Shown here in pieces: positions 2,797 through 49,108 of a DNA stretch of 64,000 bases (position 1 is its first letter; each line of letters begins with the position of its first letter). A model generated the notes under the pieces. It searched no databases, was not told the origin of the DNA, and saw nothing but the letters and a program-made list of their open reading frames with translations. This DNA comes from an uncultured Gammaproteobacteria bacterium (GTDB taxonomy: Bacteria > Patescibacteriota > Microgenomatia > UBA8517). A program made the translations under genes and the position numbers. The stretch is taken from positions 393,152 through 457,151 of the forward strand of contig CAZOVJ010000001.1 in the NCBI GenBank assembly GCA_964583685.1, given 5' to 3'.

Positions 2797-2797
2797 A

Positions 2798-19045: not shown

Positions 19046-21478
19046 TCAAGTATAACTTTTTACCTTTCTCCTGCCAAGCAAATGGCTGGCCGGCACTAAA
19101 GTTAAGAGCAAAACCAGTGAAACCATTGATAACTTTAAACCATTAAAGAAAGATTCTGGTTGATAAACAAAACGTACCTCATGCTTGCCGCTGGGAATCT
19201 GAATTGCCCGGAAAGCAAAATCAGCCCGATAGATCTTTGTTTCTTTTCCGTCAATATAGGCCTTCCATCCCGGATAAAAGGCATCGGAAATAAAAAGCAA
19301 GCCATCTGAATCTGTTTGAACATTAATTACACTCTCCTGCTCTTCATATTTCCCGTAACTTATCTGACAAACCCCTTTTTCTCTCTTTTCTATCCCTGGC
19401 TCTTCTTCTAAAATCACTTTTTCCCTAAAGGGATATTTTGGATCAATAAGTTTTTTTAAGATCAATTGGTCATCCTTTATGACCTCCCAATCATAAACCA
19501 TAAAGGCCCGGGGAAGAACATTCTTACTCTCAAGAACAACCGTTGTTTTATCTTCAAAGGCCAAGCTAAATCTCTCAGTTCTAAAACGGCTGGGAATTTG
19601 GCCTTCTGGGTCCGGGTCATTCTTCTCATCCCTTTTTAGAGCAAGATAATACTTTGTATTCACCAGATCAAGCAAGTGTGATGTATCATTGTCAACCGTG
19701 CCGTATCTACCCACTGGATCTGTCCCCACTTTCTGACTATTTAATGCAGCCAAAAACCGAGAGATTCTCAATGGATGAATGGTTTCATAACCCTCCAGAG
19801 AATCTAATTTATAAGGTGTTCGCATATTTACAGGAACTACTCTATTCCCTGTTACCCTAAAGGGTTGTTCTTGGGAGATTAAAAAATCCAAGATTGGAGT
19901 TGTCGGAAAAATCAGTCTTCTTTCAGAAAAAGGCGTAAATTTCCATCCGAACCTAAATAATTCAAACAAAAGCAAAAACGACAAAAGTAAAAGGCCAAGC
20001 TTTTTTAATTTCTCCCATCTGGCCATAAACCAAAGAGCGACAGAAATTGTTATTAAAATAGCTGCTGGCAAAACCATATTCCTAAGAGCAACTTTATACT
20101 TGGCTATCCCACGAACAAAAAACAAACTTGGATCAGACTGGGTCATCAGGAATTTATAGACGGCAAAAGCTCCAAAGCCAGCAATTATCAAAGAAGGAAG
20201 TAATAAGGCAAAAATATATTTAAATTTGGCTCTTGCTTTCCAAATATAATCAAAGCCAAATCCCACAAGAAGAGCTACCCCAAAATTAAACAGTATTGTC
20301 GCTCTGTGAGCTGAGGCTGCTCGCATGCCAATAATATCCTCAGTCCATAAAAAGACTGGAAGGGGAGTGGGGAAAGATAAAATAAGTGAAAAAATTGATA
20401 ATATAAACAAAAACAGAACCGCTCTTTTTGTTTTTAAAAACTTTAGGCCCAAGGTTGCTAAAACAAAAACTACCACCCCAGCGTATCCAGTATTTGAGGT
20501 ATAGTCCTGGGGACCCCAGTAATTAGCGGTTGCATGATTGCCAAAATAGTCGGGGGCAAAAAATGTTATTATTTTTGACCAAGGTAAAAAGGCCCACTCA
20601 AAAGGATGTGGCTCAAAACTCCTTTGTGAAAGCCCCCATAATTCTACTGTTGGTAAAATCTGAAAAGCAGCCAGACCAAGAGCAAAAACCAAAAAGAAAG
20701 ATAAAGAGATTGTCCTTTTGATAAATTCTAAACTTCTGTCCTTGTAAAACTTTACTAACCAGAAAATAATCATGGCTATGGCCGTGTATAAACTAGTCTG
20801 GGGATAACCTGAAAGAAGTTGAAAAACCAAAGTCGATGCTAAAAGAACACCATCTTTTATTTTGCCTTTCTTCAAATATTTATCCTCAAAAAGAATGGCC
20901 AAGGGAATAAAACTTGATGCCAGTGTGTGTCCATTCCACTGGGAAAAAATAAGATTAAAACCGGAAAAAGCAAAAGCTACTCCTCCTAAAATTGATCCAA
21001 ATTTGGAGACCTTCCAATGTCTTAAGAGAAGATAGGAAAAAAAAGCAACTAGTATATGCTGGAAAGCTATTTGCAAATTCCAGGCTGTTAATTTATCAAA
21101 AAGAAAATAAACAAAATTTGTTGGCGAAAAGGGCGCCGCCTGTAGATTAGCAAAAAGTGGGGTACCAGTGAGAATATGAGGGTTCCATAAAGGCCACTGA
21201 CCAATTTTGATCAAATCAATACCCAGCATCTGTTCAGGATAGATTAATGAAACAACATCAGTAGTAATCGGATTTTTTACAGGCACTCCAACCGAGTATC
21301 CCCATTTATAATCAAGCCAGGGATAATAAACGCCAACAACAAAATCTCCGGGGATGGAAACTTGGCCAAGGAGAACCACTTTCCAAAAAAAGATTAAAAC
21401 CAGGCCAATAATCAAGACCAATGGCCAGAATCGTTTAAAGAAGGCCCAAAAACTCTTCCTCAAATCTTTCATACCCAT
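19046..21478 (-). CDS. YfhO-family (GT-C) membrane glycosyltransferase-like protein
   Basis: 810 aa. QWPLWNPHILTGTPLFA motif and C-terminal YPGWKAYIDGKE...FAFRAIQIPSGKHEV are typical of YfhO proteins. Confidence 0.65.
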   Translation of the reverse strand: MGMKDLRKSFWAFFKRFWPLVLIIGLVLIFFWKVVLLGQVSIPGDFVVGVYYPWLDYKWGYSVGVPVKNPITTDVVSLIYPEQMLGIDLIKIGQWPLWNPHILTGTPLFANLQAAPFSPTNFVYFLFDKLTAWNLQIAFQHILVAFFSYLLLRHWKVSKFGSILGGVAFAFSGFNLIFSQWNGHTLASSFIPLAILFEDKYLKKGKIKDGVLLASTLVFQLLSGYPQTSLYTAIAMIIFWLVKFYKDRSLEFIKRTISLSFFLVFALGLAAFQILPTVELWGLSQRSFEPHPFEWAFLPWSKIITFFAPDYFGNHATANYWGPQDYTSNTGYAGVVVFVLATLGLKFLKTKRAVLFLFILSIFSLILSFPTPLPVFLWTEDIIGMRAASAHRATILFNFGVALLVGFGFDYIWKARAKFKYIFALLLPSLIIAGFGAFAVYKFLMTQSDPSLFFVRGIAKYKVALRNMVLPAAILITISVALWFMARWEKLKKLGLLLLSFLLLFELFRFGWKFTPFSERRLIFPTTPILDFLISQEQPFRVTGNRVVPVNMRTPYKLDSLEGYETIHPLRISRFLAALNSQKVGTDPVGRYGTVDNDTSHLLDLVNTKYYLALKRDEKNDPDPEGQIPSRFRTERFSLAFEDKTTVVLESKNVLPRAFMVYDWEVIKDDQLILKKLIDPKYPFREKVILEEEPGIEKREKGVCQISYGKYEEQESVINVQTDSDGLLFISDAFYPGWKAYIDGKETKIYRADFAFRAIQIPSGKHEVRFVYQPESFFNGLKLSMVSLVLLLTLVPASHLLGRRKVKSYT

Positions 21479-27535: not shown

Positions 27536-29265
27536 CAGATTTTAGTTATCCAACTTTGACAAAATTTCTTCCTTGACTGCCCTTCAACACTAAAATCCCT
27601 GTACGCCTCAGGGTGAACATACTGCCCAAGTTCAAAATCTCGACACAAAAAATCCTTTTTAATCACGTATTTTGCCAAAACATCCCGAAAGCGAGTAATG
27701 CGAGCAAAACCCTGTTCTGTCTCTTCTCTGCAATTCAGCTTCCCGTCAAAAATCCAAACAATATTTTCGTCCAGGCCATTCTCAAAACAATCAGAAACAA
27801 AGCTGACATTTCTATAGGAATAGTTTTTGTTAACCAGTCCCTCTGGTGCATTTAGATAAAAAAGGTACTCATGAAAAAGAATTTTTGGTTCAAAAGTAGA
27901 AACAATAATTTCTTTATTTGGATATGTCTTTTGAGTTAAATCTATATATCGAACAAGAACTCTATCTTGGAAAAACCATCCATCAGAAGCATAAACCGGA
28001 AAGCGATAAAAATAGATATGTAAAAGATTGACAAAAAGCAGCAAATAGATTGCGAGCAAAAAATATTTCAATCTTCCGAATCTCATTACATAACCTAAAC
28101 CGAGCCCAATTAAAATAATCAGAAAAGGGTACATCAACCCCGCTCTTTGGCTGTAAGAATGCTCGATTGTACTCAACCCAGAGGTCAACGAACCAACGGC
28201 AATGGCAACCAATAAAAACCACCATGTTTTTTTGCTTTTGAAAAACAATAGACTAAAGCCAACCAGCAAAAAAAGTAAGTCAACAAAGTAAAAAGTGCCG
28301 TGTTTCTGATAAGAAAAAGCAGCCCGAAGTTCGCCATTAAGAAACAAATTATCAGCCGAAAAAGTGTTCAGGTATTTTTCTAAAAAGCCCTTGCCATAAA
28401 CAGTTAACTTATTAATAAACAAATTATTGAACTGCCAGGGTACTGTTCTTAACCTCTCGCTGTTTACCTCACCACTTATTTCAGACAATGTTGGTAAATA
28501 GAGTTCTCCACCTCTTGCCCTCATTGATTGATTCTGGATAATAATTACTGCATAACTAGCAAGGATGACAGAAACAATAAGACTGAAAACAAGATAGGGT
28601 TTTATGCTGCGTTGACCACTAGAAAAGTAATGATAAAAAAGAGTAGCGATTATAAAAAAATAAAAAGCAATCTGACCACCTGTATAGCTAAAAAAACCCA
28701 AGAGATAAAAAGGTAAAGCATAAAAGATACCATAATCTTTCTTCTTCAGAAGAACAAGAAAACCAAGCAAAAAGAAAAAGACAAAAAAGTTTACCTCAAA
28801 GACCGTCCTACCCATTAAAAAGCTCCAGGGATTTATTGCCATTACAAAAGATGTGATAATGGCAGTCTTTTTGTCGGCGAAAAGGTGCATAACTAAGTGA
28901 TAAACAACCAGGACAGTGAGCGAAGATAAAAGTGCGCCGACCATCCTACTTGCAAAAAGGGAAAAAGGCAGAGGACCAACAATTAGCATCAATAAAAATA
29001 CTGGAACCTCTGCAACCGTAACAGTGAAATCTTGCATTTGAGTCGGTAAAACTGCCGGAGCTGTACCCGATACAAACTTACCAGTTTTAAAGAATGATTT
29101 TGCTGCAACAACATAATTGAGCTCGTCATGTGTCATTCCTATAGGGAACTTGTCAAGTAAAATTAACCTTATCCCCAGAGAAAAAATAAAAATCAGGAGC
29201 AACCAAAATTTATTTTGAAAAAACTGTTCTAAAGCCTTTTTTAACATCAGCAAAGATTGAGGCAC
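27535..29265 (-). CDS. GT-C glycosyltransferase (PMT/ArnT-like, divergent)
   Basis: First-loop motif GMTHDELNYVVAAKSFFKTGKF. Polytopic, with a C-terminal soluble domain. Confidence 0.65.
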   Translation of the reverse strand: MPQSLLMLKKALEQFFQNKFWLLLIFIFSLGIRLILLDKFPIGMTHDELNYVVAAKSFFKTGKFVSGTAPAVLPTQMQDFTVTVAEVPVFLLMLIVGPLPFSLFASRMVGALLSSLTVLVVYHLVMHLFADKKTAIITSFVMAINPWSFLMGRTVFEVNFFVFFFLLGFLVLLKKKDYGIFYALPFYLLGFFSYTGGQIAFYFFIIATLFYHYFSSGQRSIKPYLVFSLIVSVILASYAVIIIQNQSMRARGGELYLPTLSEISGEVNSERLRTVPWQFNNLFINKLTVYGKGFLEKYLNTFSADNLFLNGELRAAFSYQKHGTFYFVDLLFLLVGFSLLFFKSKKTWWFLLVAIAVGSLTSGLSTIEHSYSQRAGLMYPFLIILIGLGLGYVMRFGRLKYFLLAIYLLLFVNLLHIYFYRFPVYASDGWFFQDRVLVRYIDLTQKTYPNKEIIVSTFEPKILFHEYLFYLNAPEGLVNKNYSYRNVSFVSDCFENGLDENIVWIFDGKLNCREETEQGFARITRFRDVLAKYVIKKDFLCRDFELGQYVHPEAYRDFSVEGQSRKKFCQSWITKI

Positions 29266-30673
29266 CCATTAAAGAGTAAATAACTATAAAATAAAATATT
29301 CCTCCCAAAATCACCAAGATGACAATGGAAATTAAGTTTACAGGCAGAAAATTGCGAACAAGCAAAAGCAAAGCTGCCATTGTCAAACCAGCAATCCCCG
29401 GCTTGAAGATACTCTCAAGCAAAGAAAATTTAACATACCTTCTGGCTATATAGATGGCGATAACCGAGCTTGAAGAAACCAGGGCATAGCCGGCGGCCGC
29501 CCCATTGACTCCATATCTTTTTGTCAAAAAGGGCAAAAGAATCCAAGACAAAACTGTCCACATAATCATCAATTTAAAGGTAATTTTGATTTTGCCAATG
29601 GCATTGAGAAGATTGGTCAGTTGAGTGGTAGCGGCAGCGAAAGATGCACTGATGGCAAAAAAACTGAGAGCTGTCAGGGCCGGAATCCATTTTTGATAAC
29701 GAGGAATCACCCGAACTAAAAACGGTGCGACAATTAAAATTCCCAAAATACTGGGGAAAACTAAAAAGCAAACAAAAAATATCGAGCGGGTAACAAATCT
29801 TTCAAGTTGTTTTTTATCGTCTTGCATTCGAGAAAAGGCCGGAAAACTAACTTTTAAAACATTATCCATAAAAAATCTTAGAGGCATCTGGCCTAATTTT
29901 TGGGCAAAGCTAAGGAAACCCATTCCCGCACTACCTAAAATCCCTCCTAAAACTATTATTAGACCATCGTCCTTGATTGTTGCCAAAAGAGTATTCAGTT
30001 GATAGGGAAGGCCAAAGCGCAAAAGTTTTCTTAGAGATTTTCTGGAAAAGGCCAAGCCAGGCATCCAAGGTTGAAGCAAATAGATGGCCACCAGCCCAAC
30101 CAAGCCCCTGATTAAAACGGCAATGGTAAAGCTGGTAATTCCCAATCCTTTCCAGGCAGCCAAAACCACTACGATGTTGTAAACAATATTTTCGAGAATT
30201 TGAGGAAAGACAAGCCTTTCAAACTTCAACTTTCTCTCAAGTAAGGTTGAGGGAATAGTTTTTAGGGAAGAGAGAAGTAAAGATATTCCCAAGGCATACA
30301 AAAGATAAAGGCCCTCTTGAGATAATTTATAAAATTTGGCAATAAAAGGCGAGCTCAAAAATAATATGAGTAAAAGCAGGATGACCAATCCCTGCTGGAC
30401 AGTAAAGGTTGTTTTCAAATCTTCATCTGTAACCTTCTTCCTTTTCTGAATCAAAGAAGCAGCCAGGCCAATATCGGAAAAGTAAGCTAAAAAGTTGACA
30501 ACCGCCGAAACCATGGCAAAAACCCCAAATTGGCTCTGGTCCAAAAATGCCCATAAAAATCCAGTGGCAATAAAAGAAAGAAGATGCAATAAGAAGCTTC
30601 TGCCAGTCAGAGTAACCACTCCGTGAACTGCCCGAGCTTTTACTTTCTCAAGAGTCATCTCCGCCACACTCAA
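29210..30673 (-). CDS. Wzx-like polysaccharide/oligosaccharide flippase (MOP superfamily)
   Basis: 487 aa, about 12-14 TM helices, typical PST-family organisation. Sits in a glycan locus. Confidence 0.6.
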   Translation of the reverse strand: MSVAEMTLEKVKARAVHGVVTLTGRSFLLHLLSFIATGFLWAFLDQSQFGVFAMVSAVVNFLAYFSDIGLAASLIQKRKKVTDEDLKTTFTVQQGLVILLLLILFLSSPFIAKFYKLSQEGLYLLYALGISLLLSSLKTIPSTLLERKLKFERLVFPQILENIVYNIVVVLAAWKGLGITSFTIAVLIRGLVGLVAIYLLQPWMPGLAFSRKSLRKLLRFGLPYQLNTLLATIKDDGLIIVLGGILGSAGMGFLSFAQKLGQMPLRFFMDNVLKVSFPAFSRMQDDKKQLERFVTRSIFFVCFLVFPSILGILIVAPFLVRVIPRYQKWIPALTALSFFAISASFAAATTQLTNLLNAIGKIKITFKLMIMWTVLSWILLPFLTKRYGVNGAAAGYALVSSSSVIAIYIARRYVKFSLLESIFKPGIAGLTMAALLLLVRNFLPVNLISIVILVILGGIFYFIVIYSLMGASIFADVKKGFRTVFSK

Positions 30674-31565: not shown

Positions 31566-33238
31566 AATCAATAGAAAAAATTGGGAAAGTTTTTACCTTG
31601 CTTATCTTAGCTCTGGCCATTTTTTTAGGAATCCTCACTAGGTTTTACAAACTTGGCCAAGCACCAGCCGGCCTCTATCTTGACGAGGCAGCTCAGGGAT
31701 ACAGTGCTTACTCAATCCTTAAGACTGGCAAGGACGAATTTGGTAAATCCTTCCCCGTTGTTTTCCGCTCCTTTACGGATTTCAAAACCCCTATCTATAT
31801 TTATCTGCTCGTTCCTCTTATCCCCATTTTTGGTCTTAGTAAATTTACGGTCCGTTTTCCCTCATTTATCTTCAGCGTTTTGAGTCTTCCCCTAATTTAT
31901 CTTTTAATCCGCAAAATCTGCTCTCAAAAAATCGCCAAGCCCCTTAGCCTGCTGACCAGCCTGCTCCTGGCAATTTCACCCTGGCACATCCTCTTTGGCC
32001 GGACCAACTTTGAATGCAACGTTGCCCTTTTCTTCTTCCTGGCTGGAATTTATTTCTTCTATCAAGGTCTGAAAAAGCCCAGTCGCCTTTTAATTTCAGC
32101 CATCATGTTAGCCATCGCCATCCCTAGCTACCACTCCCAAAGGCTGATTACTCCGCTCATGCTCTTACTCTTATTTATCAGGCATCGTCAAGTGCTTTTA
32201 GGACCAAAGCACCGTCGTTTTGTCTGTCTTGGCCTTTTAATTGGCCTCCTGATTAGTCTACCTACCTTGAGTGTTGCCTTTAGCCCTGGCTTCTTGGCTC
32301 GGGCTAGCGGGCTCAACATCTTCTCCCACCAACGCCAAATGCCCACTGGCTTTCTTGAAAATTATCGCGGTCCTCTTACTGAAATAATAAATAGCTCTTG
32401 GTTTCTCTCAACCCAAGAGTTTCTTTCTTTATATCTTTCTTACTTTTCTCCGAGAAATATGTTCGTCCTCGGCGACTATGACCCCCGCAGCTCTTTCCCG
32501 GAATTATCAACCTTTTTCCTCTGGCAATTTCCCTTCTACCTCTATGGCCTTTATCTTATTTTCAAAAATAAAAGCCTTAAAGAACTCCGTTTCCTTACTC
32601 TCGCCCTTCTCTTGATTTCTCCGCTCCCGGCCGCCGTTACCCGCGATCCCTATTCCACCATTCGGGCCTTACCCATGGTTATTCCTCAATTAATAATCAT
32701 CAGTTTGGGCCTGATTAAGGCCTTTCAAATTTTAAAAAAGCCAATCTTTAAACTAGCAACCTATGGCCTATTTGGCTTAATCCTCATCTATTCAATGGCC
32801 AAGCTTTACAGCTCAGTTATTGTCTTAAATGAACATTTCCGGGCCAAGTATTGGAATTATGGCTGGGAACAAGTAGTGGAAGTGCTACACAAACTTGACC
32901 CTCACTTACCAGTAGTCGTTGATACTGCCCGCTCAGAACCTTACAGCCAAATCCTTTTCTTTCTTAAATTTGAGCCCACCACCTATCAGCAGGAAAATCA
33001 GGAAGTTCCTCTTTCCCAGTACTATACCAATATGTCCAGGAACTCAAGTCGAAAAATAGGCAATATCATTACCAGGGTCATTGACTGGGAACCTGACTTA
33101 TTGATTGAACAATATTTTGTCGGTGATGCTCTGGCCATTTCTCAGCAGCAAATCGCAGTTCATAAACTTAAATTAATTGAGGAAATTGACTATCCGGATG
33201 GCAGTGTCGCTTTCAGAATCGTCAAAACCAACCCCTAA
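31562..33238 (+). CDS. GT-C glycosyltransferase, ArnT/PMT family, paralog 7
   Basis: YLDEAAQGYSAYSILKTGKDEFG...GLSKFTVRFPSFI. Confidence 0.85.
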   Translation: MKSIEKIGKVFTLLILALAIFLGILTRFYKLGQAPAGLYLDEAAQGYSAYSILKTGKDEFGKSFPVVFRSFTDFKTPIYIYLLVPLIPIFGLSKFTVRFPSFIFSVLSLPLIYLLIRKICSQKIAKPLSLLTSLLLAISPWHILFGRTNFECNVALFFFLAGIYFFYQGLKKPSRLLISAIMLAIAIPSYHSQRLITPLMLLLLFIRHRQVLLGPKHRRFVCLGLLIGLLISLPTLSVAFSPGFLARASGLNIFSHQRQMPTGFLENYRGPLTEIINSSWFLSTQEFLSLYLSYFSPRNMFVLGDYDPRSSFPELSTFFLWQFPFYLYGLYLIFKNKSLKELRFLTLALLLISPLPAAVTRDPYSTIRALPMVIPQLIIISLGLIKAFQILKKPIFKLATYGLFGLILIYSMAKLYSSVIVLNEHFRAKYWNYGWEQVVEVLHKLDPHLPVVVDTARSEPYSQILFFLKFEPTTYQQENQEVPLSQYYTNMSRNSSRKIGNIITRVIDWEPDLLIEQYFVGDALAISQQQIAVHKLKLIEEIDYPDGSVAFRIVKTNP

Positions 33239-34752: not shown

Positions 34753-34816
34753 AAGCTTATTTTAACACTGTTGAAAACCAACTTTGACCATGAACTGGGT
34801 TATCTGTAATAATTGC

Positions 34817-35548
34817 TCTATGAGTAACGATATTTATCTATCTTTGATTATCCCTGTTTATAATGAGGAAAAAATAATCAACCATACTTTAAAAGAAGTA
34901 TTAAAATATTTGTCAAAGAAACCCTTCAGTTGGGAAGTTATTGTGGTTGATGATGGAAGCAATGATCTGAGTTCAAAAATCGTAGAAGACTTCAAAAAGA
35001 AAAAAGTAAAACTGGTCAAACAAACACCAAATCAAGGTAAGGGAGCGGCCTTAAGGCTAGGGGTTGAAAAGTCAAAGGGAAATTTTATTATCTATAGCGA
35101 CGCAGATCTCTCAGTTCCTTTAGAAAACATCGCCATATTCTTATCACGGCTTAAAAAGAATGATGTTGTAATAAGTTCAAGAAGAGCAAGGGGGGCAAAG
35201 ATAGTGGTTCACCAGCCTTGGTTGCGTGAGAATATGGGTAGAGTTTATAGCTTTCTTTCTCAGCTGGTGACAGGTATTTGGGTTTCGGACTTCACTTGTG
35301 GATTCAAAGGCTTTGAAAAAAAGGCGGCGAAAGATCTGTTTGCTTGCGGGCTTCTAGATAGATGGGCTTATGATTCTGAAATTTTGTTTTTAGCCAAAAA
35401 GCATGGTTATAAAATTTGTGAAGTTCCTGTTGCCTGGACAAACAGGAAAGAAACCAGAGTAGTGCTAAGAAGGGCGGTAATAGCCTCCTTTATAGATCTT
35501 TTTAAAATTAGGGTAAACGATTTGTTAAGTAAGTATAATAGAAAGTGA
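34817..35548 (+). CDS. GT2 polyprenol-phosphate glycosyltransferase (DPM1-like); start trimmed to internal Met (ORF track starts at 34784)
   Basis: MSNDIYLSLIIPVYNEEKII...VIVVDDGSNDLS...NQGKGAALRLG...YSDADL. Confidence 0.8.
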   Translation, partial: SMSNDIYLSLIIPVYNEEKIINHTLKEVLKYLSKKPFSWEVIVVDDGSNDLSSKIVEDFKKKKVKLVKQTPNQGKGAALRLGVEKSKGNFIIYSDADLSVPLENIAIFLSRLKKNDVVISSRRARGAKIVVHQPWLRENMGRVYSFLSQLVTGIWVSDFTCGFKGFEKKAAKDLFACGLLDRWAYDSEILFLAKKHGYKICEVPVAWTNRKETRVVLRRAVIASFIDLFKIRVNDLLSKYNRK

Positions 35549-35555
35549 GGAGTTT

Positions 35556-37193
35556 ATGCCAAAACGAATCCTTCTTTTTCTTTTGATCTTAATTATTCCC
35601 ACTTTTTCTTCCCTTCTTAGGCCAGGATACTTCCCCATGCACGACGACTTACAGGCAATACGACTTTTTGAGATGGACAAGTGTATAAAAGATGGCCAGA
35701 TTCCCTGCCGTTGGGTACCGGATATGGGTTATGGTTATGGTTATCCTCAATTTAATTTCTATGCTCCATTTCCATACTACTCAATGGAGATTTTTCATCT
35801 TTTGGGTTTAGGATTTCTAGATAGCATCAAGGTAGTTTTTGCTTTAAGCGTTCTTGTTTCTACTTTTGGCATGTTTCTCTTGGGAAAATCACTTTGGGGT
35901 AACACGGGAGGATTGATCAGTGCTCTATTATATGCTTACGCACCCTATAGGGCTGTGGACATGTATGTTCGGGGAGCAGTAGGAGAATTTTGGGCACTTG
36001 CCTTTCTTCCCTTAATTTTGTGGTCTTGCAGGGAGGTTCTAAAAAACAACAGAAAAGCAGTCTTATGGCTCGCATTATCTTTGGCCGGATTATTAACATC
36101 ACACAGCATTACTTCTCTTATTTTTATTCCCGTGTTTTTTGTTTGGGTTGCTTTTCAATTTTTCTTACTTGGCAAAGAACTGAAAAATATTGTCTTGAGT
36201 TCTTTTTGGGGCTTTTCAATGGCCGCATTTTTTCTTGTTCCAGCCTGGTTTGAGAGAGGATTTGTCCACATCCAAACCCTGCTTCAAGGATACTTTAATT
36301 ATTTAGCTCACTTTGTCAGCATTAAGCAATTATTATTCTCGACTTACTGGGATTACGGCACATCTAAGCTTGGGCCATATGATGATATTTCTTTTGCTGT
36401 TGGCCTTTTGCATTGGATATTGCCCATGCTGGCAGTTTTTCTTTTTATTATTACAAAGAAGAAAAAGCAATTATTAACTTTGTTGTTTTTTGTTGCTATA
36501 GGCTGGCTAGCTCTCTTTATGACCCACCAAAAATCAGTCTTTATCTGGAACAAAATTACAATTTTATCTTATTTACAATTTCCCTGGAGATTCTTAACCG
36601 TTGCCATATGTTGTTTTTCTGCTGCCTCTGGCTCAATCGCCCTTCTTTTTCCAAAAAATAAAAAGTTCATCTTTTCAACCTTAGCTGGAATTTCTGTCTT
36701 CATTCTCATCTTATATTCAAACTATTTTAGGCCAATAAAGTGGTTAGAAATCACTGATAACGAAAAACTCTCTGGAGAGCTTTGGGAAAAACAGTTAACC
36801 ATTAGTATCTTTGATTATTTACCTATTTACGCCGAGAGTCCACCTGGAGAAAAAGCGCCTGATAAACCACTAATAATAAAAGGGGATGGTAAGACAATCT
36901 CAGGTCAGACAGGCAGTAATTGGCAAAACTGGAAAGTCAGAATGGACGAAGAAGGGCGAATTCGCTTGCCCCTGTTTTATTTTCCAGGATGGAAAGTGTG
37001 GGTGAACGGCCAAAAAACTGCCATTGATCATGATAACAAGCTGGGCTTAATAACAGTTAGAGTGACTGAGGGTGAACAACAAATTTTAGCCAAGCTTGAA
37101 AGTACGCCAATCAGAAAATTGGGCAATATGATTACTCTAGCCGGCTTTTTGACTATTCCAGTATTTTTAAGAGAGGGGGGAAAGAAAAAATGA
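35556..37193 (+). CDS. YfhO-like GT-C membrane protein, 'HDDLQ' family paralog 1
   Basis: FPMHDDLQAIRLFEMDKCIKDGQIPCRWVPDMGYGYGYP. C-terminal YFPGWKVWVNGQ shared with the 810-aa YfhO-like protein. Good SD (GGAG). Confidence 0.65.
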   Translation: MPKRILLFLLILIIPTFSSLLRPGYFPMHDDLQAIRLFEMDKCIKDGQIPCRWVPDMGYGYGYPQFNFYAPFPYYSMEIFHLLGLGFLDSIKVVFALSVLVSTFGMFLLGKSLWGNTGGLISALLYAYAPYRAVDMYVRGAVGEFWALAFLPLILWSCREVLKNNRKAVLWLALSLAGLLTSHSITSLIFIPVFFVWVAFQFFLLGKELKNIVLSSFWGFSMAAFFLVPAWFERGFVHIQTLLQGYFNYLAHFVSIKQLLFSTYWDYGTSKLGPYDDISFAVGLLHWILPMLAVFLFIITKKKKQLLTLLFFVAIGWLALFMTHQKSVFIWNKITILSYLQFPWRFLTVAICCFSAASGSIALLFPKNKKFIFSTLAGISVFILILYSNYFRPIKWLEITDNEKLSGELWEKQLTISIFDYLPIYAESPPGEKAPDKPLIIKGDGKTISGQTGSNWQNWKVRMDEEGRIRLPLFYFPGWKVWVNGQKTAIDHDNKLGLITVRVTEGEQQILAKLESTPIRKLGNMITLAGFLTIPVFLREGGKKK

Positions 37194-38854
37194 AAAGAGT
37201 GGTTCCATTTCTATTAATTATTTTTCTCGCTCTTCCCGCAGCTAGATATTTGCTTGGACAGGGTTACTTTAACATGCACGATGACTTGCAGGTTATGCGT
37301 ATTTACCAGTTTGAGAAATGCTTGGCAGACGGACAAATTCCTTGCCGATGGTCTCCTGATATGGCTTATGGATACGGTCAAGCAATGTTCAACTTTTACA
37401 GTACCTTTCCTTACTATCTTGGAGCTCTAATGAGAATTATTGCCCCTTTTTCTATCATGGAAACAGTTTTGCTTCTTTTCTTAATCTCACTTATTTTGTC
37501 TGCTTTTGGAATGTATTTTTTAGCAAAACAGTTTTGGGGGAAACTGGGTGGTATAGTGGCCGCAGTTTTGTATACTTACGCTCCCTATCATGGCCTTGAT
37601 ATCTTTATTCGAGGCGCACTGGCCGAGTCGTTTAGCTTAGCCATATTGCCATTTATTTGGCTTTTTATATATCTGGTGATTAAAAAAGCAAGCTTTCAAA
37701 GAGTTGTGGGGCTAACTCTTTCTTTGGCAATACTCTTTACCACTCACAACGTTTCTTCTTTAATGTATGCTCCCTTTACAGCTGTTTGGGCTCTCTTTTG
37801 GATAGTTTATTCAAAAAAATGGAAGTCAATATTGGGCCTTGGACTGGGGGGCGTTCTTGCTTTAGGAATTTCAGCCTTTTTTCTTCTGCCAGTCTTGTTT
37901 GAGCAGTCCTTAATCCAGAAAGAGTTTTTTACGATGGATTATCTTGACTATAATGCACATTTCGTCTCAATTAGGCAACTTTTCTTGGATAGAGCTTGGG
38001 GACATGGGCCTTCTATTTTTGGACCTGAGGATGAATTATCTTTCCAAATAGGATGGCCACACTGGTGGCTGGCAATCCCTTTAACTTTTATTGCCCTTTT
38101 CTGGTTTGTAAAAAAACGAAGCAAATCTCTACTGTTTGTCATTTTAGGTCTTTTGGGGTTTTCGGCTTTGACTGCCTTTTTAACCCATTCCCGCTCAACC
38201 CCCATATGGCAAGCAATACCCATGATGGCCTTTATTCAATTTCCCTGGAGATTTTTAGGGCCCACTATATTTGGACTTTCCTTTGGAGCCGGAGCTTTGG
38301 TAAAAACAGGAATCAAATTTAGACACCTAGTTGGCACTTTTATTATCATATTAGCAATCGTATTGAACTTTAACTATTTTAAGCCCTGGAGTACCTATGC
38401 GATAAATGATGAAGAAAAGTTAAGCGGTATCTCATTTGAGATTCAGCAAAAGTCAGCCATATTAGACTATCTTCCAAAAACTGCGCCGATTGCTCCAAAA
38501 GAGCTTGCTCCTGAAAAGCCAATTATTGCCTTCGGTGAAGCTGAAACCTACAACTTCTCAAAACGCTCAAATAGCTTCTTTTTTGATGCTGAGGTATATC
38601 AAAACACGGAAATTCAAATTCCAGTCATGTATTTCCCGGGCTGGAAAGTTATCTCTGAAAAAACTGTCATTCCCAGTTGGCCCTCAGGAGATTATGGACT
38701 CATTACTATTGAGCTACCTCAAGGCAAACATATTATCAGAGGAAGGTTTGAAAACACACCGGTACGAGACATTGGCAATACAATATCCATATTATCAACA
38801 ATCATTATTTTCTCAGGCTTTTTGGTTGAAGCTAACAAAAAGAAATCAAAATGA
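37190..38854 (+). CDS. YfhO-like GT-C membrane protein, 'HDDLQ' family paralog 2
   Basis: FNMHDDLQVMRIYQFEKCLADGQIPCRWSPDMAYGYG. C-terminal YFPGWKVISE. 4-nt overlap with the upstream gene. Confidence 0.65.
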   Translation: MKRVVPFLLIIFLALPAARYLLGQGYFNMHDDLQVMRIYQFEKCLADGQIPCRWSPDMAYGYGQAMFNFYSTFPYYLGALMRIIAPFSIMETVLLLFLISLILSAFGMYFLAKQFWGKLGGIVAAVLYTYAPYHGLDIFIRGALAESFSLAILPFIWLFIYLVIKKASFQRVVGLTLSLAILFTTHNVSSLMYAPFTAVWALFWIVYSKKWKSILGLGLGGVLALGISAFFLLPVLFEQSLIQKEFFTMDYLDYNAHFVSIRQLFLDRAWGHGPSIFGPEDELSFQIGWPHWWLAIPLTFIALFWFVKKRSKSLLFVILGLLGFSALTAFLTHSRSTPIWQAIPMMAFIQFPWRFLGPTIFGLSFGAGALVKTGIKFRHLVGTFIIILAIVLNFNYFKPWSTYAINDEEKLSGISFEIQQKSAILDYLPKTAPIAPKELAPEKPIIAFGEAETYNFSKRSNSFFFDAEVYQNTEIQIPVMYFPGWKVISEKTVIPSWPSGDYGLITIELPQGKHIIRGRFENTPVRDIGNTISILSTIIIFSGFLVEANKKKSK

Positions 38855-40563
38855 TAATAAAAAAATTTTTAAACCATCCTCTCTCTATTGCCTTTTTTTT
38901 GCTTATACTATCAATTCCCGCCAGTCTGCCTCTCCTTTCTGCCGGTTTTTATGAGCCGCATGACCTTCATCATTTTGCCGATATCTATCAAATGATACGG
39001 GCTTTTCAGTCTGGACAACTTCCTCCTAGGTTGGGGCCAGATTTTAGTTTCGGCTATGGCTACCCCTTGTTTAACTTTTATTACTTAATGCCTTTTTATT
39101 TAGGATCCTTTTTCTTCTTTTTGTTCGGTAGTATCACTGCCAGTTTTAAACTAGTCTTTTTGGTTTGCATAATTTCCTCAGTCTTGGGAATGTATCTGTT
39201 TTTGCGAGAATTTACAGGAAAATGGGGAGCAACAGTAGGCTCAATTCTATTTCTTTACACCCCTTACCGGGCAGTGCAAATTTACGTAAGGGGGGCAATG
39301 GGTGAAGCATTGGCTTTATCTTTACTCCCCCTTGTTCTATGGGGAATTACAAGAATTATTAGAAATCCTAACAATAAAAATTTAATGGCTGGTGTCTCGC
39401 TAATCACCGCCACTTTTATTCTTTCTCACAACTATCTCTGGGCGCTTTCGTTTCCTTGGATTCTACTGCTGATAATTTTCCTTATGGCTAAAAGAGGAGG
39501 AAAACGCCCTGGGAAAAGCCTCATGTTTACTGGTCTTTTATCTATCGGTCTTACTGCATATTGGTGGCTGCCTGCTTTGCTAGAAAATAAACTGGTTGCC
39601 TCAAAAACGCCATTTCCACTTATAGACCACTTCCCCTTTATCAAACAACTAATTATTCCCTCCTGGGGTTATGGCAGTTCGGTTTGGGGGCCAGGAGACG
39701 AAATTTCTTTTCAAATCGGTTTAATAAATTTGTTTGTCTTAGCGTTTTTTGCCTTGCTTCTTATTTTCAAACAAAAGCTTTTTAGAAAAAAAGGGTTCTA
39801 CTTTCCCTTGTGGGCATTGATTGGTTTTTTGGCAAGTGTCCTGATGATGAATTCCCGAACTTATTTTATTTGGAAAATTATTCCCTTTCATAATTTCATT
39901 CAGTTTCCCTGGCGCCTCTTGGTTTTTACCACTTTATTCTCAAGTGTTTTAGCCGCCATCATTGTTGATCTAGTCAGTAAAAAAGGGCAAAAATTTGCTG
40001 GAATTTTAGTTATTGGCACCAGTATGGCCTTAACTTTTAATTACTTCCAACCAAGCAAAATCTTTTATAAAACTGACAATAACTATCTTGCCCGCCTTTT
40101 TAGCGATAGAACTTTGGAGGGAAAAAAAGAAACAATCTCTGATGAATATTTAAATTATAGCGAAGATTATCTGCTTTTATCCAAATGGACAGACAAGCGG
40201 CCGAGCAACTTGCCTGAATCTAAAATTCAAGCTTCAGCTAATGCCGAAATAAAGCTTATTAAGGAAATAAATCCTACTCACTGGCAAGCTAAAGTAGAGG
40301 CAAAACAAGCAACAAAAATTATATTTCACTCTTATTACTTTCCCGGATGGTTTGCCAAGCTTGATGGAAAAAATACTGAAATTTCAGCAGCTAAACCTTA
40401 TGGTCAGATAGAACTTCAACTTTCAAAAGGCGAACACGAAGTAGAGTTTTTCTGGAAAGAAACACCTCTCCGTAAAGTGAGTGATCTTATTAGTTTACTT
40501 TCACTTATTCTAGTTATTATAGTTTTAGTTCCGAAGAAGCTCACCTTTCACAATCTCAAATAA
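38851..40563 (+). CDS. YfhO-like GT-C membrane protein, 'HDDLQ' family paralog 3 (divergent)
   Basis: YEPHDLHHFADIYQMIRAFQSGQLPPRLGPDFSFGYGYP. C-terminal YFPGWFAKLDGKN. Confidence 0.6.
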   Translation: MIIKKFLNHPLSIAFFLLILSIPASLPLLSAGFYEPHDLHHFADIYQMIRAFQSGQLPPRLGPDFSFGYGYPLFNFYYLMPFYLGSFFFFLFGSITASFKLVFLVCIISSVLGMYLFLREFTGKWGATVGSILFLYTPYRAVQIYVRGAMGEALALSLLPLVLWGITRIIRNPNNKNLMAGVSLITATFILSHNYLWALSFPWILLLIIFLMAKRGGKRPGKSLMFTGLLSIGLTAYWWLPALLENKLVASKTPFPLIDHFPFIKQLIIPSWGYGSSVWGPGDEISFQIGLINLFVLAFFALLLIFKQKLFRKKGFYFPLWALIGFLASVLMMNSRTYFIWKIIPFHNFIQFPWRLLVFTTLFSSVLAAIIVDLVSKKGQKFAGILVIGTSMALTFNYFQPSKIFYKTDNNYLARLFSDRTLEGKKETISDEYLNYSEDYLLLSKWTDKRPSNLPESKIQASANAEIKLIKEINPTHWQAKVEAKQATKIIFHSYYFPGWFAKLDGKNTEISAAKPYGQIELQLSKGEHEVEFFWKETPLRKVSDLISLLSLILVIIVLVPKKLTFHNLK

Positions 40564-42111
40564 GTAAAGCGTGTCGCGGGGACCATGAACCACATATTCT
40601 TTAAAGCCATCCGGTCTCAGGGCCTTGGGATATGCGGCAACAACCCTTAGACCTAGCTCTTCAAAATCCTGCTCGAACTTCAACCTGGAAGAATTGGCAA
40701 GCAAATAAGTTTTATTACCCGCTTTCTTAGATTCCTTGAGACTTGTAGGAAGTTCACCAATATCAATTCCCACTCCAATAACCAAAACATTAGGGACCTT
40801 GGCCAAATACATCTGCAAACCATCAGGCAAAGTGCCAAAATAGCCCTCTGTACCAACAATAATCTGGGTCTCAGGCTCTTGAGCATGGATTGTCTTAATC
40901 AGCTCTGCCGCCTCCCTTATGCCTGTTCCAGCCGTCCATTCTTCCAAATAGCCTGAGCGTTCACCTCTGGGCAGAGGTGCTTTTTCCGGATTTGTTAGTA
41001 AGAGACAATCAATACTCAAAGCATGGAGAATAAAAATGACCAGGCCTAAAAATAAAAGTTTTTGGAAAAATTCTTGCTTGACTAAAAATATTGACCCAGC
41101 CAATAACCAGAGAAAGGGAATTGAAAAAAGAATATAGCGAGCAGTAATAACCTTGGCAAACTCGGCCTGAACAAGTAAAGGGAAAAAAGACCAAGCCAAA
41201 AGCAAAACTATCTCTTTACCATATCTCCTTATATTCAAAAGGCTTCCCAGAACAAGAAAAACAACAACTACGCTCGGACCCAAAATCCAGAGCCACTGCC
41301 AGGCTCGGTGAAAATAGAAAATAAAGGGATCTTTGGGGTTTAACCAAAGATGGCTTAAGGGAAACACGTAATCTTCATTACGAGAGCCAATAAGATGAAA
41401 GTTGGGGCCGAGTCGCAGAATATTGTACATGGCAAAACTGATAATGTAGATGCTAGAGAAAAGAAAAATAAGTTTACCCAGATGAGTCAGTCTTTCTTTT
41501 TTTGTTTTGGGCCAATTACTCAGAATAACAGTTGTTGGCAAAAGAATAACAAAAAATAAAGCCGGTGATTTTGTTAGCAAGGCTCCTCCTAAAGCAAATC
41601 CAGTAAACATGGCCATATCCAAACGCATTGTTCTGACCGTAATAACAGCCAAAAAAAGGCTCCAAAGACCAAACATCGCCAACAGGGAATCGACCAAGGC
41701 CATCCTATCGAAAAATAAGCTAAAAGGAGAAACTGCCCATATTAATGAAGTAATTAAAGCCACTTTTTTGGATTTAAAAAGATAGAGAGCAAAGCTAAAA
41801 AGACCAATTATTGTTACCATGCCGGAAACAACTGAAATGAAGCGACCAATAAATAAGGGGTCACTAAATCTGTTAACTAAAAACATTAAAATCCACATAA
41901 AAAGAGGTTGTTTACCATCTGAGAGAGGTAAGAAGCGGAGGGTTGGCTCAGCCACCATAATTTGAGACCAGCGGATATAAATGGCCTCATCTGTAAAAAC
42001 AGGTAAAATCGTCAAATTATAAATTCGCAAAAAAAGGCCAATAGCAACAATCAGAAAGCCCAAAAGAATTGTTAGCTTCCAGTCTTTAAAGTAGTCTAAA
42101 AATTTAGACAT
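40525..42111 (-). CDS. GT-C glycosyltransferase, ArnT-like (PMT_2)
   Basis: First loop PVFTDEAIYIRWSQIM. 528 aa, polytopic. Confidence 0.7.
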   Translation of the reverse strand: MSKFLDYFKDWKLTILLGFLIVAIGLFLRIYNLTILPVFTDEAIYIRWSQIMVAEPTLRFLPLSDGKQPLFMWILMFLVNRFSDPLFIGRFISVVSGMVTIIGLFSFALYLFKSKKVALITSLIWAVSPFSLFFDRMALVDSLLAMFGLWSLFLAVITVRTMRLDMAMFTGFALGGALLTKSPALFFVILLPTTVILSNWPKTKKERLTHLGKLIFLFSSIYIISFAMYNILRLGPNFHLIGSRNEDYVFPLSHLWLNPKDPFIFYFHRAWQWLWILGPSVVVVFLVLGSLLNIRRYGKEIVLLLAWSFFPLLVQAEFAKVITARYILFSIPFLWLLAGSIFLVKQEFFQKLLFLGLVIFILHALSIDCLLLTNPEKAPLPRGERSGYLEEWTAGTGIREAAELIKTIHAQEPETQIIVGTEGYFGTLPDGLQMYLAKVPNVLVIGVGIDIGELPTSLKESKKAGNKTYLLANSSRLKFEQDFEELGLRVVAAYPKALRPDGFKEYVVHGPRDTLYLFEIVKGELLRN

Positions 42112-42856
42112 TATATCTACCTAAAAAAGCACTTATTCTCACCCGGGTTAAATCTTTCAAGGCCTGCCACGAGTCTTTGATGGGATTTACCCTCAAGGTA
42201 CCTTTATGATGCCAGATAACAGGCACTTCAACAACCTTTAAGCCAAGTTTTTTGGCAATATAAAGGAGCTCCAAGTCAAATCCAGCGGTCACGGCTGAGC
42301 CTTCCAGGGCCCGCTTTTCCGTAAAAACCTGCATCCTTTCAAAAACCTGCTTAACGGTCTTTTTGTTAAAGGCCTTAAAGCCACATTGAGTATCACTGTA
42401 GCCCAGTCCAAGAATTAATATTCTGAGGATTTTAAAACCATAAGCCATGGCCTTACGAATAAAAGGGGCTCCCTCTCGTCCTTGTCTTGAGCCAATAACA
42501 ATATCGTACTTTCCCCTCTCAAATTGAGGCAAAACCTTGGCTAATTGATTAATAGGTGTTGCCTGATCCATATCAGTAAAAAGAATTATCTGGCCAGAAG
42601 CAACCAGCATCCCGGCAATCACTGCCCCGGCCTTTCCCCGGTGAGGCTCTTGATAAACCTTGAAGTTTTTATGCTCACGGCTAAATTTCTCGGCCAGAAA
42701 GGTTGTCTTGTCAATTGACCCATCATCAACTATTAAAACTTCCCAAGAGTACTTTTGCTTTTTTAAATAGTGATAGACACTCTCTAGAGCACCTGATTTT
42801 ATATTTTCCTCTTCATTATAGGCCGGGATAACCAGCGAAAGGTATATTTTTTCCAT
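42104..42856 (-). CDS. GT2 polyprenol-phosphate sugar synthase-like glycosyltransferase
   Basis: LSLVIPAYNEEENI...VLIVDDGSIDKT...FTDMDQ. Confidence 0.8.
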   Translation of the reverse strand: MEKIYLSLVIPAYNEEENIKSGALESVYHYLKKQKYSWEVLIVDDGSIDKTTFLAEKFSREHKNFKVYQEPHRGKAGAVIAGMLVASGQIILFTDMDQATPINQLAKVLPQFERGKYDIVIGSRQGREGAPFIRKAMAYGFKILRILILGLGYSDTQCGFKAFNKKTVKQVFERMQVFTEKRALEGSAVTAGFDLELLYIAKKLGLKVVEVPVIWHHKGTLRVNPIKDSWQALKDLTRVRISAFLGRYNV

Positions 42857-44343
42857 TATTTAGTAAAGCCAAACATGGGATCTGTCAGATTAGAATTTTG
42901 GCCGCTACAACTTATAAGTACCTCCTCCTTCGTATACAAAGGATAATCAGGATAGATAATTCCTATTGCCCCGAAAGTTTTATGAACTTCTATGTCTTTT
43001 CTCAACGGAAAAACAATTGTATAGACAGGGCTTCCACTTTTCGGATGATTAACATGGATGTCTTCCAACCAGAAAAAATATCTATAACCCAACTCATAGC
43101 CCGGCTTTGTTATATAAGAAACAGCCACACAGGGAAAATCTTTTTCTTGAGCATCTTTTTTAATTTCGGCAACAACCGCCCTTCTCTCAATATACCCACT
43201 TTTATTTATATCCATTGAAAAAAATCTATAAATATTAATAGCTAAAAATAGAACTATTAAAGAAATTGATAGTTTTTTAAATCTTTCTTGATTGAATAAA
43301 GATGAAATAGCCACACTCACAATTCCAATCCAGACAACGGTCATCCCGTTGAAATAATATTCGGAAAGAATAATTGCGTTAAGAGAGAAAAACACGATGT
43401 ATATTGCCAGCCAGATAGACCAAAGTATAATCAGCTCTTTCCTAATCAGCTTTTTGATGGCAATAAAAAATAATAGTCCAATCAGAATGTAGAGTGCCCA
43501 TTTATGCTCGATATTAATAAACGAACCCCACAGAAGACCTGTCGTATTTTTGGAAATTAAAGTAATTGCTCTATGAAACTTAATTAGGATTCCAGAAAAA
43601 TCACCTTTGCCTATTGTCAAAGAGCCTAGCACGGCCTTTGTTTGACTAAAACCATGACGCAATTCAAAAAGGATTAAAGGCAAGGATGTTAGTATTAGTG
43701 ATATTACTCCAAAAATGGCAGCATTAATATTTAGTCTTTTTCTTCCTAAGAAAAACGCAATCAAAGCCAGGGGGGCTATAATTGCCAGAGCTAAGTTAAA
43801 ATTCCAAACTAGGCCCAGTAAAATCCCGCTCAATATAAAACCCCTTTTTTGTTCACCTCTGAGTATTAAGTGTAGGGAATAAAGAAACCAAACCGTCCAA
43901 ATTATGGCTGGCGTAGTTGGCACAACCTCCCTATCAGTTAAAACAGTATAAAAAGAAGTCGCATATATTAGAGAAGCAATTAGCCCTGTTGATTTATTGA
44001 AAATTTTCAAAAACACATAATAGCAACTCCAGATACCAAAGGCCCCCAAAAAGGTAACCATTACAACTCCTCCTATTGGATCCATGTCAAAAAGTAAATA
44101 AAATGGAATAAGAAGATAATAAAAAACAGGCCCTACAAAAACTCCGTGACTTGAAGTCTCTTGACCGATTAATCGCAAATGTTTGTTAACCAAAATATCT
44201 TTTATTATCCATCCTGCCAAATCCTGATCATGGGAATAGATAAAAAGTTGAAGAGGTTTGTAGCTTTTTAAAAATAGTCCCAATCCCAAAATTACTAGGA
44301 ATGGATAGTTCTTAATAATAAATTTTTTAATTTTGAGTTTCAA
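42856..44343 (-). CDS. GT-C-like polytopic membrane protein, 'RD-motif' family paralog B
   Basis: YSHDQDLAGWIIKDILVNKHLRLIGQETS is similar to the other RD-family members. Confidence 0.6.
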   Translation of the reverse strand: MKLKIKKFIIKNYPFLVILGLGLFLKSYKPLQLFIYSHDQDLAGWIIKDILVNKHLRLIGQETSSHGVFVGPVFYYLLIPFYLLFDMDPIGGVVMVTFLGAFGIWSCYYVFLKIFNKSTGLIASLIYATSFYTVLTDREVVPTTPAIIWTVWFLYSLHLILRGEQKRGFILSGILLGLVWNFNLALAIIAPLALIAFFLGRKRLNINAAIFGVISLILTSLPLILFELRHGFSQTKAVLGSLTIGKGDFSGILIKFHRAITLISKNTTGLLWGSFINIEHKWALYILIGLLFFIAIKKLIRKELIILWSIWLAIYIVFFSLNAIILSEYYFNGMTVVWIGIVSVAISSLFNQERFKKLSISLIVLFLAINIYRFFSMDINKSGYIERRAVVAEIKKDAQEKDFPCVAVSYITKPGYELGYRYFFWLEDIHVNHPKSGSPVYTIVFPLRKDIEVHKTFGAIGIIYPDYPLYTKEEVLISCSGQNSNLTDPMFGFTK

Positions 44344-48413: not shown

Positions 48414-49108
48414 AGTCGAAAAAGATCCAGAAAACTCCTGACAATAACATTTAAACTAGCCCCGGTTGCTCTTCCGGCCAGTCGAGGATAATGGTTAACT
48501 CCAACTTCAACAATTTTAAACCCTTTCTTTTTTGCCTTGATTAAAAGCTCACTGCTGATGAAGGCGCCCCTTTCACTCTCCAGTCTAGAAATCTGATTAA
48601 TAACCTTTTTGGAAGCCAGTTTAAATCCACAGTCAATGTCCCGGACCCTAAGACCAAAGAGAAGAAAAACCAACCATTGCCAGAAAAAACTATTTAGCTT
48701 GCGAATAAAGGGAACTTGACGCTTTAAATAATATCCTATAACAATATCGGCACTTGTCCGCTTTTGAGTTTGGATAAATTTGCTAATCTCTAAAAAATCA
48801 AACTGACCATCAGCATCAATAAAGGCAATCCAGAAATACTTTGAATTATAAAATCCACTTTTGAGAGCTGCTCCGTAACCACGATTCACTTGATGACTAA
48901 TTATCCGTATCCTTTTGTCTTCTTTACTTAATTTCCGGGCAATTTCAGCCGTTTTGTCCTCAGAACCATCATCGATTATCAGTATTTCCCATTTATTCGC
49001 TATTTTCAGAAGAACTTCTTTGGCCTTTATAACGGTTTCCTCCAAATGTGTTTCTTCATTGTAAGCAGGAAAAAAGACCGATAACTCGCCAATCAGTTTT
49101 CCTTTCAT
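48398..49108 (-). CDS. GT2 polyprenol-phosphate sugar synthase-like glycosyltransferase
   Basis: LSVFFPAYNEETHL...ILIIDDGSEDKT...FIDADG. Confidence 0.8.
   Translation of the reverse strand: MKGKLIGELSVFFPAYNEETHLEETVIKAKEVLLKIANKWEILIIDDGSEDKTAEIARKLSKEDKRIRIISHQVNRGYGAALKSGFYNSKYFWIAFIDADGQFDFLEISKFIQTQKRTSADIVIGYYLKRQVPFIRKLNSFFWQWLVFLLFGLRVRDIDCGFKLASKKVINQISRLESERGAFISSELLIKAKKKGFKIVEVGVNHYPRLAGRATGASLNVIVRSFLDLFRLWRKL

Follow-up and report, generated by a model that had tools for sequence, protein, structure and literature searches.

Three tandem paralogous genes coding for GT-C fold glycosyltransferases are found in one operon in mycobacteria (embC-embA-embB), where EmbA and EmbB form a heterodimer. 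Systems combining a GT-A fold glycosyltransferase, a flippase and a GT-C enzyme have been described in Gram-positive bacteria; in the variant GacI/GacK/GacL, the GT-A is cytoplasmic and the flippase is of Wzx type (PMC8035078). In Streptococcus mutans, one GT-A (PgfS) and two GT-Cs of the YfhO type (PgfM1 and PgfM2) glycosylate Ser/Thr-rich proteins (bioRxiv 10.1101/2024.05.05.592596). YfhO from Bacillus subtilis displays 13 transmembrane (TM) helices, with a loop of 389 amino acids (aa) between the last two (PMC5836110). The window analyzed here is a stretch of 64,000 nucleotides (nt) of the contig CAZOVJ010000001.1 (assembly GCA_964583685.1, positions 393,152 to 457,151 of the forward strand; GTDB lineage Patescibacteriota, Microgenomatia, UBA8517). 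It contains three tandem genes coding for paralogous membrane proteins, hereafter A, B and C (Table 1), which are directly preceded by a gene of glycosyltransferase family 2 (GT2). From sequence comparisons, we consider it likely that the GT2 and the three GT-C paralogs form a cassette for extracytoplasmic glycosylation. An earlier annotation made from the letters of the window (the sequence-only reading) had described the three paralogs; the GT2 gene directly before A was absent from it.

The three proteins were compared with the algorithm BLASTP. The identities, over the full length, are of 38% between A and B (E 6e-121), 33% between B and C (E 2e-65) and 32% between A and C (E 1e-64), a similarity far above chance. 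In an all-against-all BLAST of the 52 large open reading frames (ORFs) of the window, A, B and C were linked only to each other, with the exception of a C-terminal match of 56 residues between C and the 810-aa ORF 19046-21478(-) (E 1.8e-4). Each paralog contains about 11-13 TM helices and ends with a TM anchor; its external domain of ~125 residues includes a beta-sandwich of ~75 residues. The AlphaFold2 (AF2) model and its fold matches in the PDB, among which are the Emb entries 7bvf and 7bve, reveal a polytopic GT-C fold. The conserved acidic (DxD-like) motif that GT-C enzymes carry in the first extracytoplasmic loop is represented by a His-Asp located directly after TM1. The proteins of the trio family start with a positively charged N-terminus and end with a Lys-rich tail; together with the position of the His-Asp, these features suggest that, like other GT-C enzymes, these proteins expose the acidic motif and the beta-sandwich on the extracytoplasmic side. 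A, B, C and their orthologs have in common the invariant residues H30, D31, R53, D57, R141-G-A, E146, H186, E238, Q350-F-x-W-R354 and P483/W485; D32 and P352 are nearly invariant. The N-terminal motif HDDLQ...DGQIPCRW had been proposed in the sequence-only reading as common to the three proteins. The literal motif MHDDLQ...C...DGQIPCRW is present only in A and B; C displays instead EPHDLHH...SGQLPPRLGPDFSFGYG, in which the His-Asp is retained and the second Asp and both Cys are missing.

The family PF10131 (PTPS_related; gathering cut-off of 26.4 bits) is reached by B with 40.7 bits and by C with 41.5 bits, and a match with this family was found in 30 of the 31 family members scanned (best E 1.6e-17). 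Paralog A shows no PF10131 match, and its sole Pfam match is a weak PMT_2. The alignment covers only a part of the PF10131 model (positions 1-328 for B and 1-311 for C, out of 621), as is also the case for the fused relatives described below, and the model includes neither TM1 nor the HDD loop of the trio family. With PF09586 (YfhO; cut-off of 28.5 bits), no match was detected for A, B or C at E<1, and three of the 31 relatives gave weak matches (best 1.7e-5). None of the NCBIfam models matches A, B or C. By Pfam criteria, the trio thus belongs to the existing uncharacterized family PF10131 and not to PF09586. PF10131 is listed as a member of unknown function of the GT-C clan CL0111 (PMC7801869). 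Grouped at 50% identity, the family comprises at least 6,166 clusters (E<=1e-30). The only informative name among the close homologs, given by NCBI to one of them, is "6-pyruvoyl-tetrahydropterin synthase-related protein". The identity of a 6-pyruvoyl-tetrahydropterin synthase (PTPS) was rejected, as the Pfam scans detected no PTPS catalytic domain and the fold is GT-C.

The relation with YfhO was evaluated with hhalign, from an alignment of 31 sequences of the trio family and an alignment of 27 sequences containing the homologs of the 810-aa protein, itself a member of the YfhO family (Table 1). The membrane cores are aligned over 357 columns (trio 1-378, YfhO 1-407) with a probability of 99.0% and an E-value of 2.7e-18, and the C-terminal slices over 74 columns with a probability of 97.8% and an E-value of 1e-12. 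The two PMT_2-like GT-C paralog families of the window, used as controls, gave E-values of 1.4e-6 (135 columns) and 4.7e-7 (148 columns), with shallower alignments of 7 and 4 sequences. Conserved residues co-align exactly between the trio and YfhO (P234/P276, G278-P279/G322-P323, D281/D325, S284/S328 and R354/R392); the HDD motif and the invariant D45 of YfhO are at most one residue apart, beside a YfhO insert of ~32 residues. The C-terminal module YFPGW...G(K/E)H is found in A, B, C and the 810-aa protein. In the AF2 model of the latter (mean predicted local distance difference test, pLDDT, of 84.5), the strands 704-711, 715-722, 726-733, 738-742, 745-747, 749-752, 756-761 and 764-772 are followed by the helix 775-808; in the model of B, the strands 451-458, 462-469, 473-480, 485-489, 492-494, 496-499, 504-509 and 512-520 are followed by the helix 524-553. 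In this secondary-structure register, the offset is constant (+253) for all eight strands. The model of the 810-aa protein also finds the same GT-C structures of the PDB as the trio model, in nearly the same order, and one cluster representative (P0289) matches the positions 756-822 of the Pfam model of YfhO (PF09586). A search of the PDB sequences with the family profile returned only noise. Three elements are additional in the 810-aa protein: its first external loop carries an insert, its membrane part is longer by about two TM helices (460-514), and the residues ~515-700 form an alpha/beta subdomain. Compared with the YfhO architecture of 13 TM helices and a domain of ~260-389 aa between the last two, the external domain of the trio has the same placement, with a size of ~125 aa and about two TM helices fewer. 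These comparisons of profiles and models support a trimmed YfhO-like architecture for the trio, which appears specifically close to YfhO within the GT-C clan.

The kinship with YfhO had been proposed in the sequence-only reading from the C-terminal YFPGWK module common with the 810-aa protein, and had been made dependent on a relationship visible in profiles or structures. The common module was borne out by the C-terminal hhalign and the strand register, the profile relationship was detected over the 357 columns of the core, and the comparison of AlphaFold models that it called for, made between B and the 810-aa protein, gave an identical C-terminal register. The proposal of an undescribed compact subfamily of YfhO stands only in part: the kinship and the trimmed architecture were retained, but the proteins match PF10131 instead of PF09586, and the family is large and already named.

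The homologs nearest to B have a length of about 555 aa and 47-71% identity with it, and the few with an organism name belong mainly to Candidatus Woesebacteria. One genome, with a B ortholog of 51% identity, displays the same order GT2-A-B-C and orthologs of A and C with 51-52% identity. A motif-guided scan of the GTDB species genomes recovered 478 loci, the best 80 of which were analyzed, a sample biased to relatives of B. Many records with such Microgenomates-type loci bear the title "uncultured Gammaproteobacteria" or "Pseudomonadales bacterium" (L008, L011, L013-L015, L021-L023, L028 and others) and one "Clostridia bacterium" (L024); these record labels are probably placeholders or wrong. 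The neighbour-joining tree obtained from 166 family ORFs contains three disjoint clades composed of 43 (A), 38 (B) and 37 (C) sequences, and 48 other sequences, here named S. The copy number was established on the 59 loci taken as complete, whose flanks reach at least 2 kb on each side: 26 have the composition A-B-C, 25 a single S, four S-S, two A-C-S and two B alone. The junctions of the triads are mostly overlaps. The proteins of the C clade are devoid of the second Asp and of both loop Cys, which are kept in A, B and S, and show a deletion of four residues in a later loop; they keep the remaining invariant residues.

A, B and C are closer to their orthologs of other species (42-61% identity) than to each other (32-38%). 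On this sequence evidence, the triplication is older than the split of these species and has been retained since, the neighbour-joining tree being unable to tell whether the single-copy lineages have lost B and C. An ancient and retained triplication argues for non-redundant roles; it is probable that A, B and C have different acceptors or linkages, or that they work one after the other. The recent triplication proposed in the sequence-only reading is contradicted by these identities, by the three disjoint clades and by the A-B-C order of 26 of the 59 loci; to its question of whether relatives have one or three copies, the answer is both.

The head-to-tail arrangement with overlaps of 4 nt, already noticed in that reading, was found at both junctions of the trio (ATGA), all genes being on the + strand. 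The GT2 gene and A are separated by 7 nt, and the sequence GAGGAG, a Shine-Dalgarno sequence, overlaps the stop codon of the GT2. As the upstream neighbour of the cassette is divergent and the downstream neighbour convergent, the unit is considered to be of four genes, and the operon GT2-A-B-C (34784/34820-40563) is likely as a part of the whole explanation. A GT-A gene beside a GT-C gene, as in the multi-component systems (PMC8035078), is thus present with the GT2, its activity being predicted as follows. The GT2 comprises 242 to 254 aa depending on the start chosen, the likely true start being the ATG 34820 (242 aa), in agreement with the gene call of the Joint Genome Institute (JGI). A scan of the protein revealed no hydrophobic segment, and hence no TM segment. 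Among proteins of solved structure, the GT2 is best matched by the polyprenyl-phosphate glycosyltransferases GtrB sll0501 (E 3e-17), ArnC and DPMS, from which it is predicted to be a polyprenyl-phosphate sugar synthase. A promoter-like site is well placed before the gene (Table 1), and is taken as a weak hint only; in the promoter/terminator scan of the region, the counts of sites were not over the shuffle expectation. The -35-like TTGACC lies on the TTG start that was assigned mechanically to the GT2, and the extended -10 (TG-AATAAT) ends 6 nt before the ATG 34820; the mRNA of the GT2 may be leaderless.

Natural fusions of a GT2 with a GT-C of the family were detected. In five GTDB species, single ORFs of 804-829 aa contain a GT2 part orthologous to the cassette GT2 (33-36% identity, full length) and a GT-C part with 40-43% identity to A. 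Five other cluster representatives (821-832 aa) carry an N-terminal PF00535, and four of them also match PF10131. These fusions represent Rosetta-stone evidence of a functional coupling, and agree with a topology where the N-terminus is inside. Other GT2 domains are joined to other partners in ORFs of ~700-745 aa (L030:2103-4322, L063:2068-4278, L072:523-2754 and L059:9656-11767). Some products contain two to six family repeats (P0241, 1093 aa; P0242, 1116 aa; P0269, 1670 aa; P0260, 3329 aa) and others are putative fusions of a family GT-C with a C-terminal PMT/PMT_2 GT-C (P0284, P0386 and P0289); both groups are possibly artefacts of gene calling. P0359 is also a putative fusion, its C-terminal half being without Pfam assignment.

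In about 70 loci, the genes are co-directional in the order GT2, PMT_2-type GT-C, family gene(s) (S or A-B-C), Wzx-type flippase, then membrane proteins and GT2s. Wzx is directly downstream of the family gene(s) in 35 loci, the PMT_2-type GT-C is upstream in 38, and a GT2 of the cassette type immediately precedes the family genes in 16 triad loci and in one two-copy locus. In the window, the cassette GT2-A-B-C is inverted as a unit relative to its syntenic flanks. The pair 30723-33238 is likewise inverted in comparison with the supercluster of glycan biosynthesis (window 21435-49108 versus loci L004-L085), which is common to about 70 species-level genomes and mostly co-directional.

From these data, a mechanism in three steps can be proposed. 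The GT2 devoid of TM segment would synthesize a polyprenyl-phosphate monosaccharide on the cytoplasmic face of the membrane, as its nearest solved relatives suggest. The lipid-linked sugar would then be flipped across the membrane, the probable flippase being, from synteny, the protein of Wzx type encoded beside these genes in most relatives. Finally, the three GT-C paralogs would move the sugar onto extracytoplasmic acceptors, either a cell-surface glycopolymer or Ser/Thr-rich surface proteins, with a catalysis that may involve the invariant His-Asp found where the first external loop begins. Several observations weigh against this mechanism. The cassette GT2 is directly upstream of A only in the subset of Woesebacteria, the other lineages having another GT2/GT-C pair. 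In the window, the Wzx gene is 4 kb from the cassette and on the opposite strand, and no flippase of the GtrA type was found among the ORFs. The best NCBIfam matches of the GT2 (PpgS, PgfS and ArnC) are partial and far under the cut-offs. No YfhO-family entry figures among the PDB matches listed, and the literature search (PF10131, PTPS_related, COG5617 and the NCBI name) found no characterized member of PF10131 and no biochemistry.

Other explanations of the trio were considered. A, B and C could be the subunits of one obligate hetero-oligomeric GT-C complex comparable to EmbA-EmbB or Pmt1-Pmt2, to which we give a small but real chance. The fixed A-B-C order with mostly overlapping stop and start codons in the 26 complete triads suggests a stoichiometric co-translation, and a dependence of small GT-C enzymes on partner proteins has been proposed as possible (PMC8035078). 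At least one subunit, probably C in view of the losses observed in its loop, would then serve as a scaffold without catalytic activity, bind the acceptor or act as the anchor of the GT2, which has no TM segment and is fused to a family GT-C elsewhere; this extension is about as doubtful as the complex itself. Against a complex, the invariant residues of His-Asp, VRGA..E, QFPWR and YFPGW are kept in all three proteins, and the 25 single-copy loci, at the same position of the cluster, indicate that one protein suffices. It is unlikely that the GT2 and the three paralogs form one self-contained membrane machine, with a direct hand-over of the donor and three specificities of acceptor or linkage, and just as unlikely that in such a machine the GT-C subunits anchor the donor synthase, as the covalent fusions do, and help to translocate their own donor, an idea raised for YfhO (PMC5836110).

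The proteins could also act as polymerases or ligases for a lipid-linked oligosaccharide flipped by Wzx (Wzy/WaaL-like), or as oligosaccharyltransferases, rather than as monosaccharide transferases. STT3, AglB and PglB are among the top structural matches, Wzx is the most conserved downstream neighbour and one family member shows a weak Wzy_C match (E 0.005). However, the nearest relatives in sequence, of YfhO type, use polyprenyl-monophosphate monosaccharide donors (PMC8035078), and the trio is coupled, and in some lineages fused, to a GT2 similar to the GtrB/ArnC/DPMS enzymes that make such donors; we therefore judge this function quite improbable. A compact subfamily inside PF09586, triplicated recently in this genome, would account for the profile and C-terminal homology to YfhO and for the few weak PF09586 matches, but A, B and C reach PF10131 instead, and the identities of paralogs and orthologs and the three clades make it very improbable. 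Finally, proteins related to PTPS, acting in the metabolism of pterin or queuosine, are suggested by the family name only; the polytopic GT-C fold and the position of PF10131 in the GT-C clan (PMC7801869) leave this function a practically negligible probability. A likely cassette of glycosylation, made of one donor synthase and three non-redundant transferases, is thus the explanation that we retain.

Table 1. Features of the GT2-A-B-C cassette and of related genes. Coordinates are those of the window, except for the fusions, which are given by locus.
Feature	Coordinates	Strand	Remarks
GT2 (GT-A fold) glycosyltransferase	34784..35548	+	first gene of the cassette; PF00535, E 2e-31
Promoter-like TTGACC-18-(TG)AATAAT	34784..34813	+	directly before ATG 34820; weak evidence
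GT2/A junction	35535..35558	+	stop TGA 35546-35548 overlapped by GAGGAG; 7 nt to the ATG of A
Paralog A	35556..37193	+	545 aa; predicted GT-C fold membrane glycosyltransferase
HDD of A (residues 29-31)	35640-35648	+	
A stop/B start overlap	37190..37193	+	ATGA, 4 nt
Paralog B	37190..38854	+	554 aa
HDD of B (residues 30-32)	37277-37285	+	
Beta-sandwich and terminal TM helix of B (residues 445-553)	38522-38848	+	
B stop/C start overlap	38851..38854	+	ATGA, 4 nt
Paralog C	38851..40563	+	570 aa; most divergent of the three copies
H37-D38 of C	38959-38964	+	within HDLHH
YfhO-family GT-C (comparator)	19046..21478	-	810 aa, bona fide member outside the cassette; same C-terminal module; PF09586, E 2.2e-23, 83 bits
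Wzx/MOP-family flippase	29210..30673	-	candidate partner; PF13440, E 2e-58; NCBIfam MOP flippase, E 2e-43, under cut-off
PMT_2-type GT-C and its GT2	40525-42111; 42104-42856	-	conserved neighbours; directly upstream on the same strand in most relatives
Small hydrophobic ORF	25348-25713	+	121 aa; in an otherwise non-coding gap; no family match
Small hydrophobic ORF	62618-62878	-	86 aa; in an otherwise non-coding gap; no family match
GT2-GT-C fusions	L033:7194-9683, L042:7275-9689, L047:7227-9695, L056:6119-8539, L065:7242-9656		five GTDB species
GT2-GT-C fusions, cluster representatives	P0249, P0253, P0261, P0275, P0311		

About 20 GT-Cs and some twelve GT2s are encoded in the whole window (64 kb). 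Seven paralogous GT-C genes of the PMT_2 type, with products of about 550 aa and 29-35% identity, are localized at 1126-15128(-/+) and 31562-33238(+), four of them in tandem at 1126-7801(-). A second GT-C paralog group is found at 42856-44343, 44327-45826, 46809-48413 and 17454-19028, all on the - strand, with the GT2 genes 42104-42856 and 48398-49108 interleaved; these GT-A/GT-C pairs are conserved across the Microgenomates. Four conserved ORFs have no Pfam match: 25814-27535(-), 573 aa; 27535-29265(-), 576 aa; 7713-9500(+), 595 aa; and 30723-31565(+), 280 aa. Since the homologs of the first two trail Wzx in nearly every related locus, their products are candidate components of polymerase or ligase type. 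A search of the window for a small membrane protein resembling GacJ detected only the two hydrophobic ORFs without family match (Table 1).

PF10131 is a very large unstudied family, for which the only informative name carried by close homologs is misleading. The locus connects this family on one hand to YfhO, a family active in the glycosylation of teichoic acids and of surface proteins rich in Ser and Thr, and on the other hand, through coupling in the operon and through natural fusions, to a GT2 predicted to make the donor. The family gene, or the A-B-C triad, occupies a fixed position in a large glycan cluster common across the Microgenomates, which are uncultivated bacteria with small genomes, and it provides a testable hypothesis for their poorly known cell surface. 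The locus exemplifies a known type of system, without new principle, as an unstudied variant of cell-surface glycosylation.

Compared with the family PF10131, the trio is distinguished by its C-terminal half, which corresponds to a beta-sandwich and TM anchor of YfhO type. With the YfhO family (YfhO from B. subtilis and Staphylococcus aureus, PgtC2 from Streptococcus pyogenes, PgfM1 and PgfM2 from S. mutans), it shares a homologous TM core, the C-terminal module, an external domain that separates the last two TM helices and a GT2 partner. In contrast, the trio proteins are ~250 residues shorter than the YfhO-like protein of the window and are present in three copies. Their external domain contains ~125 aa, against ~260 aa in the 810-aa protein and 389 aa in B. 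subtilis YfhO, and they have neither the insert of the first external loop nor the alpha/beta external subdomain, with about two TM helices fewer. The Pgf cluster of S. mutans is similar in that one GT-A accompanies two GT-Cs of YfhO type, and the operon embC-embA-embB in that three paralogous GT-C genes are in tandem. The Gac system of S. pyogenes combines a GT-A without TM anchor, a Wzx-type flippase and a GT-C, and the same kinds of genes are clustered here and in the relatives. It differs by its GacJ small protein, of which no equivalent was found here, and by its GT-C of PMT_2 type in place of the PF10131/YfhO-like one, whereas the present locus has three GT-C paralogs and, in some lineages, a GT2 fused to the GT-C. 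By analogy, the closest parallel of the GT2-A-B-C cassette would be the GacI/GacK/GacL variant of multi-component transmembrane glycosylation, in which the GT-A is cytoplasmic and the flippase of Wzx type.

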